64,000 nucleotides of DNA from an uncultured Chloroflexia bacterium (lineage in GTDB: Bacteria; Chloroflexota; Limnocylindria; Limnocylindrales; CSP1-4): contig CAVSXG010000001.1 in the NCBI GenBank assembly GCA_963731865.1, positions 56,032-120,031 on the forward strand, in the 5' to 3' direction. Shown in pieces: positions 48,487 through 58,292 of the stretch. A program made the translations under genes and the position numbers. Positions within the stretch are counted from its first letter, which is position 1. The number at the start of each line of letters is the position of its first letter. The notes beneath the pieces are model-generated. The model saw nothing but the letters and a program-made list of their open reading frames with translations. It had not been told where the DNA came from and made no database searches.

Positions 48487-49827
48487 ATGGACACACTGCC
48501 GCACGTCTCCCTGCCCCCCACCGCAATCGATGAGCTGGCCCTCTCGAGGCGCAGGTTCCTGCGCAACGCCGCGTTGACCGGCGGCGGCCTCGTGGCGGCC
48601 GCGGGGCTGGCGGCCTGTGCCCCGGCCGGCAGTGCAGCGGGTTGGACCTTCGGCCCGGACCTCGCGGCGGCGAGCGCCGCACCCGAGGCCGGAGCGAGCC
48701 CGTCCGCGAGCGCCGCGGCGAGCCACACATGCATCCGCAGCCCCGCGGCGTCCGCGTCCGCCGGCCCCGGGCGGCCCGATGCCGGCCGGCTGGAGCGAAC
48801 ACGACGTCGCGGCCCGGGACGTCGTCCGCCGCTACATCGGGAACCTCGCGCCGGCGCTTGCCGACATCTATCCGGAGCCGGTCTTCACCAGGCTCGCCGG
48901 GATCCTCGGCGTCGAGGACGACTACCCCGAGCTCGCGGCCAAGCCGGCCTTCGTCCAGGTGCCCGCAGCTCTTCCTCAGCGACGCCTTGACGCCGCTCAC
49001 CCCGGAGCTCGACGGCGACGTCAAGGTCTTCAAGCTCACCATCGACGAGATCGAGCAGCGGATCGACGAGAAGGGCGACCCGATCGCCGGTCTCGGCTAC
49101 AACGGCCAGTGGCCGGGCCCGACCATCCGGGTGAACCAGGGCGACAAGGTTCGGGCGGAGTTCACCAACAACCTCAAGGAGTCGACGGGCGTCCACTTCC
49201 ACGGCGTCGAGTTCGAGGACTTCTTCATGGACGGCGTGCCGTTCGTGACCCAGCAGCCGATCGTCCCGGGCGAGACGTACGCCTACGAGTTCACGGCGGT
49301 CAACCCGGGCTCGCTGATGTACCACTCGCACCACAACGCGACGGACCAGGTCGGTCGTGGGCTCCTCGGGGCGTTCCTCGTCGACCCGACGCCCGATCCG
49401 GTCCAGTACGACCGCGAGTACGTGTGGATCTCGAACGATCAGCTCGGCGGGTTCACGATCAACGGCCACGGCTTCCCGGCCGTTGTGCCGGTCCTCGCCG
49501 CGGTCGGCGAGCGCGTCCGGATCCGGTTCATGAACGAGGGAATCATGATGCACCCGTGGCATCTCCACGGGATGCCGATGCGGGTCGTCGAACGCGACGG
49601 CTGGCCGCTCGGTGGCGCCGAGTTCACCTGCGACACCCTGGGCGTCAACCCGGGCGAGCGCTGGGACGTGATCATCGAGGCGAAGACGCCCGGCGTCTGG
49701 GCGTTCCACTGCCACATCCTGCCCCACGCCGAGGCCATGAACGGCATGTTCGGCATGGTCAACGCGATGATCGTGGTGCCCGAAGCCGGCACACGTCGAC
49801 GCGATCGTGGCCGCCTTGCTCGCGTAG
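48487..49827 (+). CDS. Tat-exported two-domain multicopper oxidase; frameshifts near 48730, 48960 and 49790
   Basis: SRRRFLR Tat motif; VHFHG, MYHSH, HPWHLHG, FHCHILPHAE..M. Confidence 0.88.
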
Positions 49828-49842
49828 GCAGGCACGCGCAGG

Positions 49843-51384
49843 CTAGCTTCCGGGCTCGACCCACCCGAGGGACCGTTCCACGCCCTTGTGCCAGCGGGCG
49901 ATCCCGGCCGCTCGCGCGGCCTCGTCCATCGACGGCTCCCAGCGCCGGTCCGCGCGGTCCATGGCTCGGAGCTCGTCCAGACCGCTCCAGAACCCGACGG
50001 CGAGACCCGCCGCGTAGGCCGCCCCGAGGGCCGTCGTCTCGGCGATGGGCGGCGCCACGACCGATCGACCCAGGATGTCGGCCTGGAACTGCATCAGCAG
50101 CTCGTTCGCGATCATCCCGCCGTCCACCCGCAGCTCCCCGGGGAGTGGCGCACCGAGGTCCGCGGCCATCGCCTCGCACAGGTCGTGCGACCTGGTACGC
50201 GGTGGCCTCGATCGCGGCCCGCGCGATGTGTCCTCGTGTCGACGAACGCGGTCAGCCCGGCGATCACGCCTCGAGCGTCCGCTCGCCAGTGCGGCGCGAA
50301 CAGGCCGGAGAACGCGGGCACGAAGACGACGTCGCCGCTATCCGGCACGGAACGGGCGAGCGCCTCGACCTCACGCGCGTCGCCGATGATCCCGAGGTTG
50401 TCCCGCAACCAGCCGATGAGCGAGCCCGTGACGGCGACGGAACCCTCCAGCGCGTAGGTCGCAGGCGCCTCCCCGATCCGGGCCGCGACCGTCGTGATCA
50501 GGCCATGTCGCGACGGGACTGGCCGCTCGCCCGTGTGCATGAGCAGGAACGCGCCGGTTCCGTACGTGCATTTCATCTGGCCAGGCTCGAAACAGGCCTG
50601 GCCGAACAACGCGGCGTGCTGGTCGCCAAGATCGCCCGCGATCGGGACGCCGGCCAGCTCCCCCACCCCGACGCCATAGACCTCGGACGACGAGCGGATT
50701 TCGGGGAGCATGCGCGCCGGGATGTCGATCGTCGCCAGGAGCCCGGGCTCCCAGGCGAGCGTCTCGAGGTTCATGAGCATCGTCCGCGAGGCATTCGTGA
50801 CGTCGGTCACGTGGATGCCCCCGTCGGGCCGCCCGTCAGGTGCCAGATCAGCCAGGTGTCGATCGTGCCGAACAGGAGATCGCCTTGTCCGGCCGCCGCA
50901 CGACGGGCCGCGCCGTGTCACCGCCGCCCTCGTCGAGGATCGCGGCGAGCTTGAGCGCGGACGAGTAGGTCGAGATCGGCAGGCCGGTCGTCGCGCGAAA
51001 GCGATCGATCCCGTCCGTCGCCGTCCGCTGCGAGCCGCGTGCAGGCGTCGGCGGTCCGCGTGTCCTGCCACACGATCGCGTTGGCGATCGGGCGGCCGGT
51101 CGAGCGCGACCAGACGACCGTGGTTTCGCGCTGGTTGCTGATCCCGACGGCGGCGAGCGAACCGGCGTCGGCGCCCGCGCTTCCGAGCGCCCCCGGATGC
51201 ACGCCCGGACGCGCTCGAGGATCTCGTCCGGATCGTGCTCGACCCAGCCGGCCGCGGCGTGATCTGGCGATGCTCCAGCTGGTGACTGGACACGGGACGG
51301 CCATCGTGTCCGAACAGGATGCACCGGCTGCTCGTGGTGCCCTGGTCGATGGCGGCGACCAAGCGACCGGGGAGCGGCGCTCAT
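49843..51384 (-). CDS. glpK: Glycerol kinase; several frameshifts
   Basis: [57 protein letters not shown]. Confidence 0.95.
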
Positions 51385-51394
51385 CGAGCCACGC

Positions 51395-52441
51395 TCAGGA
51401 GCTCAGCGGTGCGATCCAGAAGACCTTGATCAGCTCGTTCAGGACCGTGTAGATCAGCGGAGCGCTGGCGATCAGCACCGCGCGACCAAAGGCAACGGTG
51501 TCGGCAAATGGCCAGGTCGTCATCTCCTGGACGGTCTTGCGCAAGGGAACCAGCGTATTGGTCCGCTGGTTGAGCGAGGCGATTGCCGACGTGTCGTCGC
51601 TGTTGCGATTCATGTGGTCGTAGACACCGGCGATCTTGCCGTTGATATCGGCAAGAACCGCTTCCTTCGCGTCCGACATCTGGCGGTGGATCCCGCGCAA
51701 AGGAAAGAGCAGCGCGACGATGCTCGCGGACGCGGCGAGGAGGAGCACGGTCCAGCTGAGCCAGCTCGAGGGCGAGCCGAGGCCGAACAACAGGATCCCG
51801 ACGATGCCGACCGGCGCGAGGGCACTTGCGAGCGCGATGTTGCCAAACGGCAGGAGGTTGGTTGTGTCGAAGACGTCGACCACGAGCGGCTCGCGCGACA
51901 GCTCACCGAGCGCTCGGCCGAGACTGATGGACAGGTAGATCAGGCTGAGACCGGCCCAGCCTGCCACTGTGTAGCCGGCAAGGATGACCAACGCGGTGAA
52001 CGGATCCCCCGGCAGGAAGAGGGGCTGATTCGTGATCGGGTCATTCGTGAGTGGCAACTCGAGCGAGAGCCCGGAGAAGAGCACGGTGACGATCAGGGCG
52101 GAGGCGGCCAGGATCACCAGGCTCGTCGTCGCGTCTGGCGGTCGCAGGCGATGGACATAGGTGCGAAAGGCGGTCGGGTCCAGGCGCAGCACGCGCTCGA
52201 GGGACGGCAACGAGCGCCGGACCGTTCGATCGACCAGTCGCAGGATCAACAGCTCGTACAAGACGACCGCGATGAGCGTCCAGCGAGGCGAGAACTCCGG
52301 CTGGACCATCTGCAGCGGGGCGCTGTCGGCGAGATCTTCGGCTACCTGGCCCGCGACGACGATCGCAAAGGCGACGATCGAGACATACCGTGATGGGAAA
52401 TGCAGGCGATCGAGCCCAAGCCGATTGCGTGCGGCCTGCAT
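51395..52441 (-). CDS. Multi-pass membrane protein of unknown function (start could be as far up as 52570)
   Basis: Long ORF with about 7 hydrophobic segments; C-terminal TWPF motif. Confidence 0.7.
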   Translation of the reverse strand: MQAARNRLGLDRLHFPSRYVSIVAFAIVVAGQVAEDLADSAPLQMVQPEFSPRWTLIAVVLYELLILRLVDRTVRRSLPSLERVLRLDPTAFRTYVHRLRPPDATTSLVILAASALIVTVLFSGLSLELPLTNDPITNQPLFLPGDPFTALVILAGYTVAGWAGLSLIYLSISLGRALGELSREPLVVDVFDTTNLLPFGNIALASALAPVGIVGILLFGLGSPSSWLSWTVLLLAASASIVALLFPLRGIHRQMSDAKEAVLADINGKIAGVYDHMNRNSDDTSAIASLNQRTNTLVPLRKTVQEMTTWPFADTVAFGRAVLIASAPLIYTVLNELIKVFWIAPLSS

Positions 52442-52573
52442 CGCTGGGGCGGACCGACCATCCGACGGGCGCGCCGATCCGGGGTTGGACTCCGTCGTCC
52501 TTATCGATTCTTCCGGAATTGACTTCGCCACAGGCCCGCTCGCACCCCGGAACGCTGGAATGGCCCGCATTGT

Positions 52574-53560
52574 ATGCCCGGCAGCAAGCGTATCCTCCGC
52601 ACAAACACCAGCAGCCGGGCGATCTCCACGAACCTAGCAGGCGACGTTCCCAATCTCGACATCGCGGGCGTGGCCGCGGCCTACGAACGGCGCGTGCTCG
52701 AGGCCTGCCCGGAGCACCTCCTGCTGGCCCGTTCACTGCTCGAGCGGCTGCCGCCGGCCCGCTGGACCCTCGAGTGGTACCTGCCCTGGTGGCTCGGTCA
52801 TGCGTTTGGCCTCGAGGCCGCCGTTTCGCGCGAGATGGTACTGAGCAATGTCCTCGGGTTGGGCTCGATCCGCCTCCAGGATGACCTCGCGGACGGCGAA
52901 GTAGCGCCCGCCGACATCGACGGGGCAGGCATCCTCGCGGCGGTCTTGTACGACGCCGCTCTCGAGCCGTACCGGGAGTGGTTCACGCCCGCATCGGCGT
53001 TCTGGAGCGAGCTTGACCGGCGGATGACCGAATGGCGCCGGAGTGCCGCGGAGGATCTCGCAGCTCGAGGCGCTCCGCTGCATGTCTCGGCCGCGGCCGC
53101 CAGCATGCTGGGCGGGCACAGCAGCGTGGATCCATCGCTCGTGGCCTGTCTCGATCGCGCCCTCGAAGCGCTCGTCCGGTATGACCACGTGTCGGACTGG
53201 GAGGCCGACCTCGACGCGGGCCGCTGGAATGTCTTCGTCGCCGCCGTAACGAGCGGCGCACAGACGCGCGCGGCGAGCGGCCCACGGACGCGCGCGGCGC
53301 GCGAGCGTGATCGCATCGCCGTTCGTGTGGCACTCATGACCACCACCGTGGCGGATGAACAGTTCTCGATGATTGGGGATGCGCTCCTTGAGGCGGCGGT
53401 CCTGGCCGCCAATGTCGAACCGGCGATCCCCGCGCTCACGAGGTACCTGCACTCCTTTTCGGCGGAGGTAGAAACCTGGGGATCGGAGTTCGCCATGCAC
53501 TATCGTTCGCTCGGTGATCGCGCAGCAAGATTGCTGCTCCACGAGACGGCCGATGCGTGA
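52574..53560 (+). CDS. Class I isoprenoid-synthase-fold protein (ComQ-like prenyltransferase candidate)
   Basis: All-helical; first Asp-rich motif LQDDLAD, second YDHVSDWEADLDAGRWN. Confidence 0.62.
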   Translation: MPGSKRILRTNTSSRAISTNLAGDVPNLDIAGVAAAYERRVLEACPEHLLLARSLLERLPPARWTLEWYLPWWLGHAFGLEAAVSREMVLSNVLGLGSIRLQDDLADGEVAPADIDGAGILAAVLYDAALEPYREWFTPASAFWSELDRRMTEWRRSAAEDLAARGAPLHVSAAAASMLGGHSSVDPSLVACLDRALEALVRYDHVSDWEADLDAGRWNVFVAAVTSGAQTRAASGPRTRAARERDRIAVRVALMTTTVADEQFSMIGDALLEAAVLAANVEPAIPALTRYLHSFSAEVETWGSEFAMHYRSLGDRAARLLLHETADA

Positions 53561-53608
53561 TGATTGGGTCGCCGCAGGGACGGCACGTAGTCAGGGAGGA
53601 ACCAGCCC

Positions 53609-53890
53609 ATGACGTTCCAGAACGCCCCGGACGAACCCGAGGAGCACCGGCCATACGGCTACATGGAGCGCCAGCTGATTTTCAAGCTGCTCGCGGCCCA
53701 CGCGATGGTGGACGGTGAATTCTTCGACCAGCTCCGCGAGAACCCCAGGGAGGCCGCCAGTCAGCTGCGCATCGACCTCACGGACGATGACGTCAAATAC
53801 ATCAAGGGCGTCGACTGGGAGACGCTCAACAAGAACGCGGATGCGATCCGCAACGGCTTGAACCTCGAGCAGGTCACGAACTCCTGGTAG
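53609..53890 (+). CDS. NHLP/Os1348-like leader peptide; putative RiPP precursor ending in Trp
   Basis: GGGAGG RBS; AHAMVDGEFFDQLRENPREAASQLRIDLTDDD fits the A..D..F...L..nP..a......Lt..E leader pattern; C-terminus EQVTNSW. Confidence 0.65.
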   Translation: MTFQNAPDEPEEHRPYGYMERQLIFKLLAAHAMVDGEFFDQLRENPREAASQLRIDLTDDDVKYIKGVDWETLNKNADAIRNGLNLEQVTNSW

Positions 53891-53985
53891 CCGCCATCGC
53901 GGCTCCATAGCGCCTCCACAACCCGAATCGAGACTCTGAGACAGCGATCCGACATTGGATCCACGTTCTCGAAGGAGTTTCGATC

Positions 53986-54432
53986 ATGAACCGCACCATC
54001 GCCGCCATCCTGCTCGTCGCCGTCCTGGCGATCGGCGGCGGCCTCATCGCCGTCACCGCCTACCAGGCCGGTCTCGGCACCGCCGTCACGACGGCCGTTG
54101 CCGAAGGCGGCAACGTCGTCGCCACCGTCCCTGCCTACGGCTACGGGTATGGCTACGGCTGGCACCCCGGTGGCTTCGGCTACGGGTTCTTTGGCTTCCT
54201 CGGCACCCTGCTCTTCCTCTTCCTGGTCATCGGTCTCCTGCGCGCGGTCTTCTTCCGCGGCGGACACGGACGCGGTTGGGGGCCGGGCGGTGGGCCGGGC
54301 GCCTGGGGTCCCGGCCGCGGCTGGTGGGAGACGCGCGGTCGCGAGGGCTTTGACGAGTGGCATCGTCGCGCCCACGAGGGGGGTTCATCCGGCGAGCCGT
54401 CTGCGCCGAATACAACATCGAAGCCGGCTTGA
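53986..54432 (+). CDS. Gly-rich membrane protein
   Basis: AAGGAG RBS; two TM segments; YGYG/GPGG repeats; FDEWHRRAH. Confidence 0.75.
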   Translation: MNRTIAAILLVAVLAIGGGLIAVTAYQAGLGTAVTTAVAEGGNVVATVPAYGYGYGYGWHPGGFGYGFFGFLGTLLFLFLVIGLLRAVFFRGGHGRGWGPGGGPGAWGPGRGWWETRGREGFDEWHRRAHEGGSSGEPSAPNTTSKPA

Positions 54433-54526
54433 CGGGGGGCCCTCCGCCGCTTCGTGCGCCCCTGGACCAGTGGTCCGGGGGCGCATCCGTTCTCCGCGGC
54501 ATGCGGCCGGCACTACGATGCCTCCG

Positions 54527-55222
54527 ATGAAGACGATCCTCGTCGTCGACGACGAGCCAAAGATCACGCAACTCGCCCGCGACTACCTCGAGCACGCCGG
54601 GTTCGAGGTCCTCGTCGCCGCGGACGGGCCGTCCGCGCTGAGCGCGGTCCGCCAACGGCATCCAGATCTCGTGGTGCTCGATCTTGGGTTGCCCGGTCTC
54701 GACGGTCTCGACGTCACCCGCGAGCTCCGACGCGCCTCCACGATCCCGATCGTGATGCTGACGGCACGGGACGACGAGCTGGACAAGCTGCTCGGGCTCG
54801 AGCTCGGTGCCGACGACTACCTGACCAAGCCGTTCAGCCCACGCGAGCTCGTGGCGCGCGTCCGGGCCGTGCTGCGACGGACCGAGTCCGCGACGGCGCC
54901 GTCCGACCTGATCCGGGCCGGCGACGTGGTCCTTGACGTCCCCCGGATGCGGGCCGAGGTGGCCGGCAGGGCCGTAGAGCTGACCGCGACCGAGTTCGGA
55001 CTCCTTCGCACCCTGGCCGCGAGCCCGGGGCGGATCTTCACGCGTTCGCAGCTCCTCGACGAGATCCGGGGCGTGGCATTCGAGTCGTACGAGCGGGCGA
55101 TCGATTCGCACATCAAGAACCTGCGCCGCAAGCTCGAGCCGGATCCGCGCGAACCGCGGTACGTGCTGACGGTCTACGGCGTCGGGTATCGGTTCGCCGA
55201 CGACCGGTCGGTCGCGTCGTGA
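54527..55222 (+). CDS. OmpR/BaeR family response regulator
   Basis: ILVVDDE, LVVLDLGLPGLDG, GADDYLTKPF, VLTVYGVGYRF; TACGAT-N7-ATG. Confidence 0.95.
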   Translation: MKTILVVDDEPKITQLARDYLEHAGFEVLVAADGPSALSAVRQRHPDLVVLDLGLPGLDGLDVTRELRRASTIPIVMLTARDDELDKLLGLELGADDYLTKPFSPRELVARVRAVLRRTESATAPSDLIRAGDVVLDVPRMRAEVAGRAVELTATEFGLLRTLAASPGRIFTRSQLLDEIRGVAFESYERAIDSHIKNLRRKLEPDPREPRYVLTVYGVGYRFADDRSVAS

Positions 55223-56433
55223 GCGAAACCGGCGGCGGGCGACGAACCGAGCCACCCAGGCGACCCGAGCGACCATCCGGCGACGACCCGGGAGAAGATC
55301 GCTGGTCCGGCGGCGGTCCCCCATGGCGATGGCGCAGCGACCACGGCGGCTACGGGCCGTGGGCGAGCCGCGATCCCGAGGTGCGCCGGATGATGCGGCG
55401 TCGCGCCCAGATGATGCGCGGTCGCCGGGGCGGGCCATGGCGGTTCCGGCAGGGTTTTGGCTGCATCTTCGGGATCCTGTTCCTCGTCGTCGTCGCGTCG
55501 ATCGTCACGGCGGTCGGATCCGTCCTGTCCAACCTGGAGCCGATCCCCGTCGTGATCACCGCGCTCGTGGCAATCGGAATCATCGCGGCGCTCGCGAGGG
55601 GCACCGCTGGGGCGGCCCGCGACCTCGACACGATGCTGGCAGCGACCCGGCGCGTCGAGGACGGCGACTACGGCGTGCGGATTGGCCGCACGCGCTCGGA
55701 TCTGCCCCCGATCCAGGAGCTCGCCAGCGGGTTGGACACGATGGCCGCGCGCCTGGAAGCGAACGAGGAACAGCGACGAACGTTGCTCGCCGACGTCAGC
55801 CACGAGCTGCGGACGCCCCTCGCGGTCATCACCGGCAACCTCGAGGCGGTGCTGGATGGCGTTTACCCACCCGATCCGGCGCACCTGACACCGATCCTGG
55901 ACGAGACGCGGGTCATGGCGCGGCTGATCGACGACCTGCGCACCATCTCGCTGTCCGAGGCAGGGATGCTGGCGCTCCACCCCGAGCCCACCGATCCCGA
56001 CGTGCTGATCGGTGAGGTGCTCCAGGCGTTCGCCCCGACCGCGTCGGCGGCCGGGGTCACCCTGACGACCGAAACGAGCGGCGATCTTCCGATCCTCGAG
56101 ATCGATCCCGTGCGGATCCGCGAGGTGCTTTCGAACCTGGTCGCCAACGCGCTTCGCCACACCCCGGCCGGTGGCGCCGTCACGGTCGGCGGTTCGGCGA
56201 CTGCGGGCGCTGTAGTGCTGGTGGTGCGGGATACGGGACCGGGGATCGATCCGGCGCTGCTCCCGCACGTGTTCGATCGTTTCGTGAAGGGCGCCGGATC
56301 GCGAGGGTCCGGGCTGGGGCTGCCGATTGCGCGTGGCCTCGTCGAGGCGCACGGCGGGTCGATCACGGTCGAGTCCGCCGCTGGTGGCGGATCCACGTTC
56401 CGGGTCGAGCTCCCGCGCGTCTCCGAGGGCTGA
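55219..56433 (+). CDS. HAMP sensor histidine kinase (BaeS-like)
   Basis: SHELRTPL, NLVANALRH, DTGPGI, GSGLGL; two adjacent TM helices without a large extracellular loop. Confidence 0.95.
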   Translation: MSETGGGRRTEPPRRPERPSGDDPGEDRWSGGGPPWRWRSDHGGYGPWASRDPEVRRMMRRRAQMMRGRRGGPWRFRQGFGCIFGILFLVVVASIVTAVGSVLSNLEPIPVVITALVAIGIIAALARGTAGAARDLDTMLAATRRVEDGDYGVRIGRTRSDLPPIQELASGLDTMAARLEANEEQRRTLLADVSHELRTPLAVITGNLEAVLDGVYPPDPAHLTPILDETRVMARLIDDLRTISLSEAGMLALHPEPTDPDVLIGEVLQAFAPTASAAGVTLTTETSGDLPILEIDPVRIREVLSNLVANALRHTPAGGAVTVGGSATAGAVVLVVRDTGPGIDPALLPHVFDRFVKGAGSRGSGLGLPIARGLVEAHGGSITVESAAGGGSTFRVELPRVSEG

Positions 56434-56760: not shown

Positions 56761-57840
56761 ATGACCCGTTCGATCAGCCGATCCGGGCACCGATCTCGCG
56801 CCCTCACCCGAGCCCTTGGCGCCGCGCTCTTCCTCGTCGCGCTGACCGCCGGGCCAGCCCTCGCCTGCGGCGGTCTGATCGGGCCGAACGGCGCGGTCAA
56901 CCTGCTCCGCACGACCACGCTTGCCGGCTACCACGACGGCGAGGAGCACTACATCACGGCCTTCCAGTTCGCGGGCGGTGGTGGGTCGTTCGGTTCGCTG
57001 ACGCCACTCCCCGGCGTGCCGTCGTCGGTCGAGAAGGGTGGCGACTGGACGCTCCAGCGGCTCATCCTCGAGACCGAGCCCCAGCGCGAGGCCCTCTTTG
57101 CGCTCGATGCAGCGGCCGCGGCGCCCGCTTCGGCCGAGGAGCTGATGAAGGTCCGTATCGATGCGCTCGACATCACGGTCCTGCGCGGTGGTTCGGACCA
57201 GGTTGGCAAGTGGGCCAGCGATCACGGCTTCCGGCTCCCGCCGGACGCGCCCGAAGTGCTCGATTTCTATGCCGCGCGCTCGCCGATCTTCCTCGCCGCC
57301 GTGTTCGATGCCGATGCCGCCGCCGAGCGTGGCCAGGCCGTCGGCGACGGCACGCCGGTCCACATCACGATCCCGACCGACAACCCATGGGTCCCGTTGC
57401 GGATCCTGGCGCTCGGCAAGGGCGAGGCGGAACGCGTCGAGGCGGACGTCTATCTCCTCACCGACAAGACACCGACCCTCCTGCCCGCCCCCGACGGTTC
57501 AAACGGTCTGACGCTCGGCCACAGCGCGGCCGCGACGGATCTGCTGCTGAGTGACCTGCGCAGCGACAAGGGCATGGAGTGGGTCCCGACAAGCGCGTGG
57601 CTGTCCAAGGTCCGGATCGACGCCGCGGCACCGCAGCTCGCCTTCGATCTCGCGATCGATGCGTCGGGCGCGGGACAACCGTCTCGAGTCGCGGCCGGAC
57701 TGGACCTGCCCGGCACGGTTGCCGCACCCGATCGTTCGGCCGACATGATTCGAGTGATCGTCGCCCTGGCCTTCACGATCACCGGCATCGGCGGGATCCT
57801 GTTCCTGCTCCTCTACCGTCCGCCGATGCGGGCGGCCTGA
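56761..57840 (+). CDS. DUF2330 family secreted protein with a C-terminal membrane anchor
   Basis: Signal peptide ending ALACG; SLTPLPGVP; LDITVL; PLRIL; C-terminal TM. Confidence 0.75.
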   Translation: MTRSISRSGHRSRALTRALGAALFLVALTAGPALACGGLIGPNGAVNLLRTTTLAGYHDGEEHYITAFQFAGGGGSFGSLTPLPGVPSSVEKGGDWTLQRLILETEPQREALFALDAAAAAPASAEELMKVRIDALDITVLRGGSDQVGKWASDHGFRLPPDAPEVLDFYAARSPIFLAAVFDADAAAERGQAVGDGTPVHITIPTDNPWVPLRILALGKGEAERVEADVYLLTDKTPTLLPAPDGSNGLTLGHSAAATDLLLSDLRSDKGMEWVPTSAWLSKVRIDAAAPQLAFDLAIDASGAGQPSRVAAGLDLPGTVAAPDRSADMIRVIVALAFTITGIGGILFLLLYRPPMRAA

Positions 57841-57854
57841 GCGGCGCGAAGACG

Positions 57855-58292
57855 ATGACCACCCATCGCCGGCCGGGACGGTTCGCCCTGGCCGGCGGTC
57901 TCGCCCTTGCGTTTGGCGTGGCCGGGATGGCCGCCGCCCTGGCCGACGTGCCTGGTGCCGGTCCGGTCACCATCGAGATCCCGATCCGCTATTCCCATTT
58001 CGAGCGCGATGCGGTCAACGTGCGGGCCGGATCCGAGGTCACCTTCGTCCTGCACAACGGCGATCCGATCGACCACGAGTGGATCGTCGGCGACACCGCG
58101 GTCCATGCGCGCCACCGTGCCGGCACGGAACCGGTCCACGCGTCGCGTCCGACGGAAGTGACCATTCGCGCCGGAACCACGGTGAGGACGACGGTCACAT
58201 TCACAAAGCCAGGCACGTACCTGTACATCTGCCACCTGCCCGGCCACGAGGCCTACGGCATGGTCGGCACCGTCCGGGTGACCGGCGACTGA
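57855..58292 (+). CDS. Cupredoxin (plastocyanin/azurin-like) copper-binding protein
   Basis: Signal peptide, IDHEW, type-1 Cu motif CHLPGHEAYGM. Confidence 0.88.
   Translation: MTTHRRPGRFALAGGLALAFGVAGMAAALADVPGAGPVTIEIPIRYSHFERDAVNVRAGSEVTFVLHNGDPIDHEWIVGDTAVHARHRAGTEPVHASRPTEVTIRAGTTVRTTVTFTKPGTYLYICHLPGHEAYGMVGTVRVTGD

Follow-up and report, generated by a model that had tools for sequence, protein, structure and literature searches.

The prenylation of tryptophan residues in ribosomal peptides by enzymes of the isoprenyl diphosphate synthase (IDS) fold was long known from ComQ of Bacillus only; an example from Paenibacillus followed in 2023 and one from a single species of Chloroflexota in 2026. 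ComQ alkylates a Trp near the C-terminus of ComX, a peptide encoded by the adjoining gene. In Paenibacillus alvei, the gene for the NHLP-type precursor PalX adjoins that of PalQ, an enzyme of the isoprenoid synthase superfamily that earlier annotation had taken for a terpene synthase (Miyata et al. 2023; PMC10853753). PalQ transfers C5 to C15 prenyl groups to the indole C3 of the C-terminal Trp with formation of a pyrroloindoline; this Trp is required, extension of the peptide beyond it is not tolerated, and it is the only conserved residue in the PalX tails (PMC10853753). StheQ of Sphaerobacter thermophilus (Chloroflexota) farnesylates in vitro the penultimate Trp of StheX, the 69-aa product of the adjoining gene, with which it forms a stable complex (10.64898/2026.08.29.745113). 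Here we analysed a locus in a 64,000-nt stretch of contig CAVSXG010000001.1 from a member of the Chloroflexota (hereafter the window, to which all coordinates refer; G+C content 68%). The locus comprises genes for a 328-aa enzyme, a 93-aa small protein ending in V-T-N-S-W and, on the opposite strand, a seven-transmembrane (7TM) protein (Table 1). The enzyme probably prenylates the terminal Trp of the adjoining protein. An initial annotation, made from the window sequence, had arrived at a similar proposal and knew of no described example in this lineage. The computational checks that it suggested all came out in favour of the proposal, but its statement on described examples does not hold: PalQ/PalX has the same architecture, and StheQ/StheX documents Trp prenylation chemistry in the Chloroflexota. 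The system is thus a distant, unannotated variant of the PalQ/PalX type and not new in kind.

The association between enzyme and small protein was examined in ten genome loci, namely the window and nine loci from species-representative genomes whose enzymes are 37-55% identical to that of the window, and in 31 metagenome loci, 22 of which have enough room downstream of the enzyme gene. A gene for an Os1348-type peptide lies directly downstream of the enzyme gene in all ten genome loci and downstream of it in 20 of the 22 metagenome loci; homologues 55-92% identical to the window peptide occupy this position in other loci. The pair, whose conservation the initial annotation had proposed as a check, is kept across enzyme identities ranging from 33% to 100%. 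The 7TM gene adjoins the enzyme gene in all ten genome loci as well, and in the metagenome loci with room for it. It is divergent from the enzyme gene in the main clade and convergent, downstream of the peptide gene, in the deep branches. When all open reading frames (ORFs) around the ten genome loci were compared against each other, only the 7TM, enzyme and peptide genes were found to be common to all; the remaining shared clusters were overlapping-frame artefacts or reflected local synteny.

A word-indexed search returned 125 homologues of the enzyme, all of them hypothetical or unnamed and lacking Pfam domains; those that carry a name are labelled as belonging to metagenome-assembled genomes (MAGs) of Chloroflexota. 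An exhaustive profile search yielded 1045 representative relatives at E <= 0.001. Matches of the profile to flagellins (E = 0.3-1.4) were discarded as noise. In the 118 full-length homologues, residues D103, D104, D107, D204, D208, D212 and N219 are each present in every sequence, and W64, E67, W68, P71 and W73, which make up a W-x-L-E-W-x-L-P-W-W-L motif, are likewise invariant. The Asp residues among these lie in the two Asp-rich motifs recognised in the initial annotation, QDDLAD (residues 102-107) and DHVSDWEADLDAGR (residues 204-217, starting at nucleotide 53183). No match to PF00348 was found at E <= 10 in the 37 family members scanned, nor did the family give any signal for Pfam polyprenyl_synt, SQS_PSY or terpene synthases even at E <= 10. 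In this respect it differs from the ComQ family proper, which carries a polyprenyl_synt-type signal.

An AlphaFold model of the enzyme, built on 37 sequences, reached a mean predicted local distance difference test score (pLDDT) of 89 and a predicted template modelling score (pTM) of 0.86. Among the top 50 matches retrieved by Foldseek from the PDB with this model there were only trans-IDS enzymes and two prenyltransferases of the IDS fold, MoeN5 and Ord1; the best matches extended over the full length with template modelling (TM) scores of 0.56-0.62. MoeN5 and the indole farnesyltransferase Ord1 use this fold to alkylate acceptors other than isopentenyl diphosphate. By the model, then, the enzyme has a trans-IDS fold, as supposed at the outset, and it is placed among proteins that include non-canonical prenyltransferases.

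To relate the enzyme to PalQ, the sequence of the latter (K4ZRG6) was rebuilt from a machine-read alignment figure and from mutagenesis primers, which fix the stretch L-Q-M-N-D-D-W-A-D-W-Q-T. The profile of the enzyme family (A1) scored 65.9 bits against the rebuilt PalQ over profile positions 14-213, roughly equivalent to E = 3e-13 if scaled to 1.8 billion sequences. Three other PalQ-family rows of the machine-read figure scored 26-30 bits; several rows in that figure are corrupted by repeated text, and these scores are given indicative weight only. The second Asp-rich motif aligns without gaps, with D200-D-W-A-D204-W-Q-T-D208-L-Q-D-G-S-Y-N215 of PalQ, whose letters the published mutagenesis primers corroborate in part, facing D204-H-V-S-D208-W-E-A-D212-L-D-A-G-R-W-N219 of the window enzyme. 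In this alignment D204 corresponds to PalQ D200, at the start of the motif (counterparts: StheQ N215 and Ord1 D219). The first Asp-rich stretch can be aligned with PalQ as well, in a region where the machine-read letters are unreliable. Altogether the two proteins share [YW]-L-P-x-W, DDxxD-G and D-x3-D-W-x2-D-L-x2-G-x-[YW]-N. We regard this as good, if not clean, evidence that the enzyme family would be a distant relative of PalQ.

The resemblance extends beyond the enzyme. Both systems consist of an adjoining gene pair; in both, the enzyme belongs to the isoprenoid synthase superfamily yet is remote from its named subfamilies and not recognisable by sequence as a prenyltransferase, and the precursor is a nitrile-hydratase-like helical protein with a short tail ending in Trp. 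They differ in lineage, PalQ being from the Bacillota, with the relation visible at the profile level only, and in the third component, which is a histidine kinase in the PalQ cluster and a 7TM protein in the window. StheQ/StheX shares with the window the phylum, the trans-IDS fold and an adjoining small ORF with a Trp at its C-terminal end. StheQ, however, is described as a ComQ homologue and, so far as can be compared from its description, has Q212 and N215-D216-x-x-D219 where the window enzyme has V201 and D204-H205-x-x-D208. The Trp of StheX is second from the end, as in one genome-locus relative of the window peptide (L008), which ends in FWK. ComQ/ComX stands further away: ComX lacks an NHLP-like domain, carries its Trp internally and is polymorphic in sequence, and a ComP/ComA pair is conserved beside it.

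The window peptide matched the NCBIfam model NF038399 (Os1348 family, NHLP clan) with 43.1 bits, above the 40-bit cut-off of this model, and the peptides of two other genome loci (L008 and L009) scored 46.9 and 53.7 bits. It also aligned with the crystal structure of Os1348 (6LK7; residues 28-87, E = 0.0015). No match of the window peptide to the classic NHLP model, TIGR03793, was found at E <= 10, whereas PalX scores 63.6 bits with the latter; PalX is thus a classic NHLP precursor and the window peptide an Os1348-type one. Os1348 from Pseudomonas sp. Os17 consists of six helices, shows disorder of its last six residues in the crystal and is thought to be post-translationally modified (PMC7726476). 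As a small protein of the same NCBIfam family, with a helical domain and a disordered C-terminal tail, it is among the closest known counterparts, although its gene cluster encodes the Os1349-1351 products (a predicted peptidase and a dehydrogenase among them) and efflux functions, and no IDS-fold enzyme. In light of the Os1348 match and alignment, and of the architecture of that protein, the most fitting view of the 93-aa product is that of a folded helical domain bearing a tail of some six residues (Q-V-T-N-S-W), and not that of a long unstructured leader with a core. Homologues of the peptide are conserved over their whole length, including the N-terminal PYGYMER segment. The initial annotation had spoken of an NHLP/Os1348-like leader; the assignment to the Os1348 family stands, and the leader gives way to a folded domain.

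The tail ends in V-T-N-S-W in seven of the nine other genome loci, in most metagenome loci (variants: VVNPSW, VTHSW and DAAGW) and in 15 of 16 metagenomic peptide clusters that reach the C-terminal end, among those listed. In the two Anaerolineales loci the peptides end in GAIFWK and GLSFW. In a deep branch, whose enzymes are 33-36% identical to that of the window, they end in VGNWQKTPLIPK, with the Trp in an internal position. Comparison of the tails found outside the V-T-N-S-W group (SFW, IFWK, AGW, NPSW, THSW and GNWQKTPLIPK) shows that they share little apart from a Trp at or near the C-terminus. Conservation of this residue had been put forward as a check of the initial annotation, and it extends to branches whose tails are otherwise different.

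We propose that the three genes form a cassette for the post-translational prenylation of a small protein. In this scheme the enzyme would belong, as a highly divergent representative, to the trans-IDS-like peptide tryptophan prenyltransferases (the ComQ, PalQ and StheQ group). The Mg2+-diphosphate of an allylic prenyl donor, which might be geranyl, farnesyl or geranylgeranyl diphosphate (GPP, FPP or GGPP), would be bound at the enzyme's DDxxD motif. The Os1348-type protein would dock on the enzyme, its flexible tail inserting the C-terminal Trp into the active site; the disorder of the last six residues in the Os1348 crystal structure (PMC7726476) fits a substrate of this kind. If the reaction resembles that of PalQ and ComQ, alkylation would next take place at C3 of the indole and a pyrroloindoline would be formed by ring closure, and the lipidated product would probably act at the membrane together with the 7TM protein, be it as ligand of a receptor or channel, as anchored partner or as exported cargo. 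The only canonical PF00348 polyprenyl synthase of the genome is encoded beyond the window, some 23 kb downstream of the cassette, and is a possible source of the donor.

Several observations weigh against Trp prenylation of the PalQ type. To begin with, the structural matches of the enzyme have Foldseek E-values of only about 2e-3, and neither the single sequence nor the family profile matched any Pfam or NCBIfam model or PDB sequence, leaving the enzyme with no sequence-level match to a solved structure. The comparison with PalQ depends on a rebuilt sequence and not on a database record. The peptide contains no Gly-Gly and hence no cleavage site of that type, and no protease, ABC exporter or second modification enzyme was shared among the ten genome loci in the ORF comparison. 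The peptide may not be a classical RiPP (a peptide made by the ribosome and modified after translation) that releases a small product, and its helical domain may stay attached to the tail. One natural peptide variant, in a metagenome locus (L053, 4001-4285), ends in V-T-N-S-R owing to a TGG to AGG change. The trio appears otherwise intact there, with 7TM and enzyme genes of the expected length, and this is the sole peptide found without a Trp. The two remaining points concern the active site and the tail. In a published proposal, the indole N-H is contacted by a Gln one turn before the second motif (PalQ Q197, StheQ Q212, Ord1 Q216), which would initiate catalysis jointly with the Asp next to it in the sequence (PMC12510300, PMC13290415). 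By alignment with the rebuilt PalQ, this position is occupied by V201 in the window enzyme, and by Val in 115 of the 118 full-length homologues. Lastly, the five residues of the tail are invariant in the main clade, unlike the variable cores of PalX and ComX, including the PalX residues that precede the Trp.

The replacement of the catalytic Gln by Val means that the chemistry may differ, and it raises the alternative that the enzyme modifies the adjoining protein by another reaction. This could be alkylation at N1, C2 or C5-C7 of the indole, modification of a different residue of T-N-S-W or of the C-terminal carboxylate, or prenylation coupled to cyclisation of the chain as in the two-domain ChrPC. 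In line with such a possibility, the site of PalQ D201 and StheQ D216 is taken by a nearly family-specific His at position 205 (His in 91, Gln in 18 and Asp in 8 of the 118 homologues), and the invariance of all five tail residues across the main clade suggests that more than the Trp is read or modified. On the other hand, the Trp is the sole tail residue kept across all branches, the model depicts a single-domain enzyme of ordinary size with no cyclase module, and every trans-IDS-like peptide prenyltransferase characterised so far alkylates Trp (PMC13290415). A different reaction on the same protein seems unlikely to us. A mode of action like that of PalQ is probable for the family, although the proton relay may be another one. 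The enzymes of four distant-branch loci (L044, L047, L049 and L051) have a Gln one residue before the position of V201.

The structural results could also be read as pointing to an enzyme of small-molecule metabolism, whether a terpene synthase, a cyclase or an indole or lipid prenyltransferase like Ord1 and MoeN5, with the Os1348-like protein in the part of a regulator or accessory subunit. In favour of such a reading, chain-elongating synthases and prenyltransferases of small molecules head the structural matches, the two Asp-rich motifs are as complete as those of true synthases, and the helical domain of the small protein is kept over its whole length as would befit a folded subunit. These features have to be set against the complete lack of polyprenyl_synt, SQS_PSY and terpene synthase signals noted above and the fact that, by profile, no characterised relative stands closer than the peptide prenyltransferase PalQ, albeit in its rebuilt form. 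A conserved C-terminal Trp on a flexible tail would, moreover, have no obvious role in a mere subunit, and no other pathway genes are conserved nearby. The claim of the initial annotation that the surroundings hold no terpene or carotenoid genes was also confirmed: none of these families was found among the neighbouring genes scanned, between approximately 45.6 and 59.6 kb. We consider a small-molecule role improbable and retain Trp prenylation as the preferred reading.

The wider family shows further departures from the arrangement in the window. In the deep branch (L047, L048, L049 and L051, together with the enzyme of L044), the first Asp-rich motif has the weakened form D-[H/C/R]-x-x-E. 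Other Chloroflexota genomes contain weaker paralogues of the enzyme (L012, 1105-2277, and L013, 1246-2226), both beside TPR-rich proteins. The former has an NHLP-like peptide upstream, ending in CGDTWPSPTP; the latter, detected with 47 bits, combines a ComQ/StheQ-like Q-x-x-N-D version of the second Asp-rich motif region (pseudo-SARM) with a degenerate first motif (D-N-x-x-D). A full trio was also found in a MAG labelled Candidatus Polarisedimenticolia (Acidobacteriota; L004), which reflects either horizontal transfer or a binning error. Among 401 sampled Chloroflexota genomes, a strong match to the enzyme was obtained in the window's own genome only, with none in the three genomes of the same genus included in that sample. 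A single-protein search for the 7TM protein in an order-level sample gave no orthologue in the same-genus genomes listed, and only paralogues with 21-27% identity in the family. The cassette is an accessory element.

The 7TM protein itself has no Pfam or NCBIfam family match, and a single member of its family gave one match to Pfam 7tm_7, at E = 0.062. Its hydropathy profile has seven peaks. All 21 Lys and Arg residues located outside the membrane map to the N-terminal tail and to loops two, four and six (also called odd loops), with none in the other (even) loops, which predicts an intracellular N-terminus and an extracellular C-terminus. With this topology the intracellular loops measure 33, 22 and 67 residues and the extracellular ones 16, 20 and 6. 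In the AlphaFold model (pLDDT 83), the secondary-structure string, from which alone these limits were read, places helices at 147-182, 193-221 and 227-279, then at 284-306 and 313-347; the sixth helix is 53 residues long and the last one is broken at an invariant T-W-P-F kink. The top seven PDB matches in Foldseek were the insect odorant and gustatory receptors OR28, Gr43a and Gr9 (Foldseek probability 0.44-0.97), with low scores (best E-value 8.6e-3; TM-scores 0.24-0.36). Orco was also in the list, and G-protein-coupled receptors and transporters came far lower.

These insect proteins belong to the seven-transmembrane ion channel (7TMIC) superfamily, of which bacterial members have been reported (Himmel et al.; 10.1101/2023.08.30.555482). 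The partner protein resembles this superfamily in its seven membrane spans, its predicted N-in/C-out topology and intracellular loops longer than the extracellular ones, and perhaps also, to judge from the secondary-structure string of the model, in a long TM4 and especially TM6 and a split last helix, all of which are among the features by which the superfamily is defined. Set against the prokaryotic 7TMIC proteins, the likeness is drawn from these features and from insect structures, with low TM-scores and one weak 7tm_7 match. The chances that the partner is a true 7TMIC relative appear about evenly balanced. That it serves as receptor or channel for the prenylated protein is offered as a hypothesis only, and a part in export or membrane docking is equally open. 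The combined proposal, in which the partner would be a bacterial 7TMIC channel and the adjoining prenyl-Trp protein its cognate ligand or gating partner, is more doubtful still and we think it rather unlikely. To our knowledge, no function or ligand is known for any bacterial 7TMIC. Distant 7TM paralogues (21-27% identical) are present in this genome (L019, G000:C2:2088419-2088943) and in related genomes (L020 and L021), and share a C-terminal P-x-x-F-R-G-F...L-L-P helix. No IDS-fold enzyme or NHLP-like peptide, nor any informative gene, was found among the neighbours of these three paralogues.

A distance of 650 bp separates the peptide gene from downstream genes for an OmpR-type response regulator and a HisKA/HATPase kinase (54539-56433, + strand), which are preceded by a gene for a Gly-rich 148-aa membrane protein; the whole block (53986-56433, + strand) occupies the space between the peptide gene and a DUF2330 gene. 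Given that PalX is encoded beside a kinase and ComX beside ComP/ComA (PMC10853753), one might imagine the cassette as a comQXPA-type module for quorum sensing whose output this regulator and kinase would read. The block follows the peptide gene, however, in two of the ten genome loci only, the window and the syntenic locus L006. In L001 and L002 the block is missing and the next gene after that of the peptide is the DUF2330 gene; the neighbours in the other loci are unrelated. By gene order, the regulator and kinase are not part of the cassette, and a comQXPA-like layout was rejected because these genes are not conserved with the pair. Their surroundings, namely a multicopper oxidase gene starting at 48642, a cupredoxin gene (57579-58292), the DUF2330 gene (56761-57840) and, also nearby, a gene for a TMEM175-like channel, include the multicopper oxidase, cupredoxin and DUF2330 genes that suggest a copper or envelope regulon for the two-component system. 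A quorum-sensing module of this kind is accordingly very improbable, and the pheromone role considered in the initial annotation receives no direct support, the conserved partner of the pair being the 7TM protein. Elsewhere in the neighbourhood, the glycerol kinase gene (FGGY; 49843-51384, - strand) is broken: the intact 516-aa orthologue from L006 aligns with it in at least four pieces, distributed over all three reverse frames, which indicates either a pseudogene or assembly indel errors.

The features of the locus are collected in Table 1. As described in the initial annotation, the two ORFs are separated by 48 bp and the peptide gene has a ribosome-binding site of its own, AGGGAGGAA, approximately 9 nt 5' of the ATG; its V-T-N-S-W codons are followed by a TAG stop. 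The G+C content by codon position of both ORFs bears the coding signature of this genome, the values for the peptide gene being 0.90 at third and 0.32 at second positions. The longest 7TM ORF would start 3 bp from the start codon of the enzyme gene on the opposite strand. The public gene call (P0143) is shorter by about 43 codons (348 aa, starting at 52438 if initiated from Met45 of the long ORF) and leaves an intergenic space of about 130 bp (52441-52573) for divergent promoters. A promoter and terminator scan of the interval 52300-54100 gave nothing above chance, and no site resembling the sigma-70 consensus was found in 52441-52573.

Table 1. Features of the putative prenylation cassette and their positions in the window.
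Feature	Position	Strand	Evidence
Putative PalQ-like trans-IDS-fold peptide tryptophan prenyltransferase, 328 aa	52574-53560	+	ORF, homologues, AlphaFold model, Foldseek, profile against rebuilt PalQ
First Asp-rich motif D103-D104-L-A-D107 (DDxxD), presumed Mg2+/diphosphate site	52880-52894	+	Invariant Asp residues
Second motif D204-H-V-S-D208-W-E-A-D212-L-D-A-G-R-W-N219 (pseudo-SARM region)	53183-53230	+	Invariant residues; gapless match to PalQ
Shine-Dalgarno-like AGGGAGGAA before the peptide start	53593-53601	+	Read from sequence
Putative Os1348/NHLP-clan substrate protein, 93 aa: folded helical domain and short tail	53609-53890	+	NF038399, 6LK7 alignment, linkage
C-terminal tail V-T-N-S-W; presumed acceptor Trp is TGG 53885-53887	53873-53887	+	Conservation of tail
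Seven-transmembrane partner protein; longest ORF 391 aa	51395-52570	-	Linkage, hydropathy, AlphaFold, Foldseek

What sets this system apart from its described relatives would appear, judging from the sequences, to be a deep unannotated clade of enzymes that has lost the catalytic Gln and is paired with a tail that does not vary, a folded carrier of the Os1348 type for which nothing points to leader cleavage or to export genes, and a seemingly obligate 7TM partner with predicted chemoreceptor-like topology. The clade is a much larger branch than those described before, comprising 125 homologues by word-indexed search and about 1000 representatives by profile; it lacks a Pfam or NCBIfam model and carries no informative names in the sources searched. 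The cassette offers a putative new enzyme for the C-terminal lipidation of proteins, as well as an opportunity to test whether the Gln-centred mechanism put forward for Ord1, PalQ and StheQ is general. Should the 7TM partner really be a 7TMIC relative, the locus would give a first handle on the role of such channels in bacteria. If, in addition, the prenylated protein turned out to be the cognate ligand of this partner or to take part in its gating, a prokaryotic 7TMIC would for the first time have a proposed ligand and a proposed physiological role, and the cassette would represent a route of peptide signalling in the Chloroflexota that operates without a histidine kinase.

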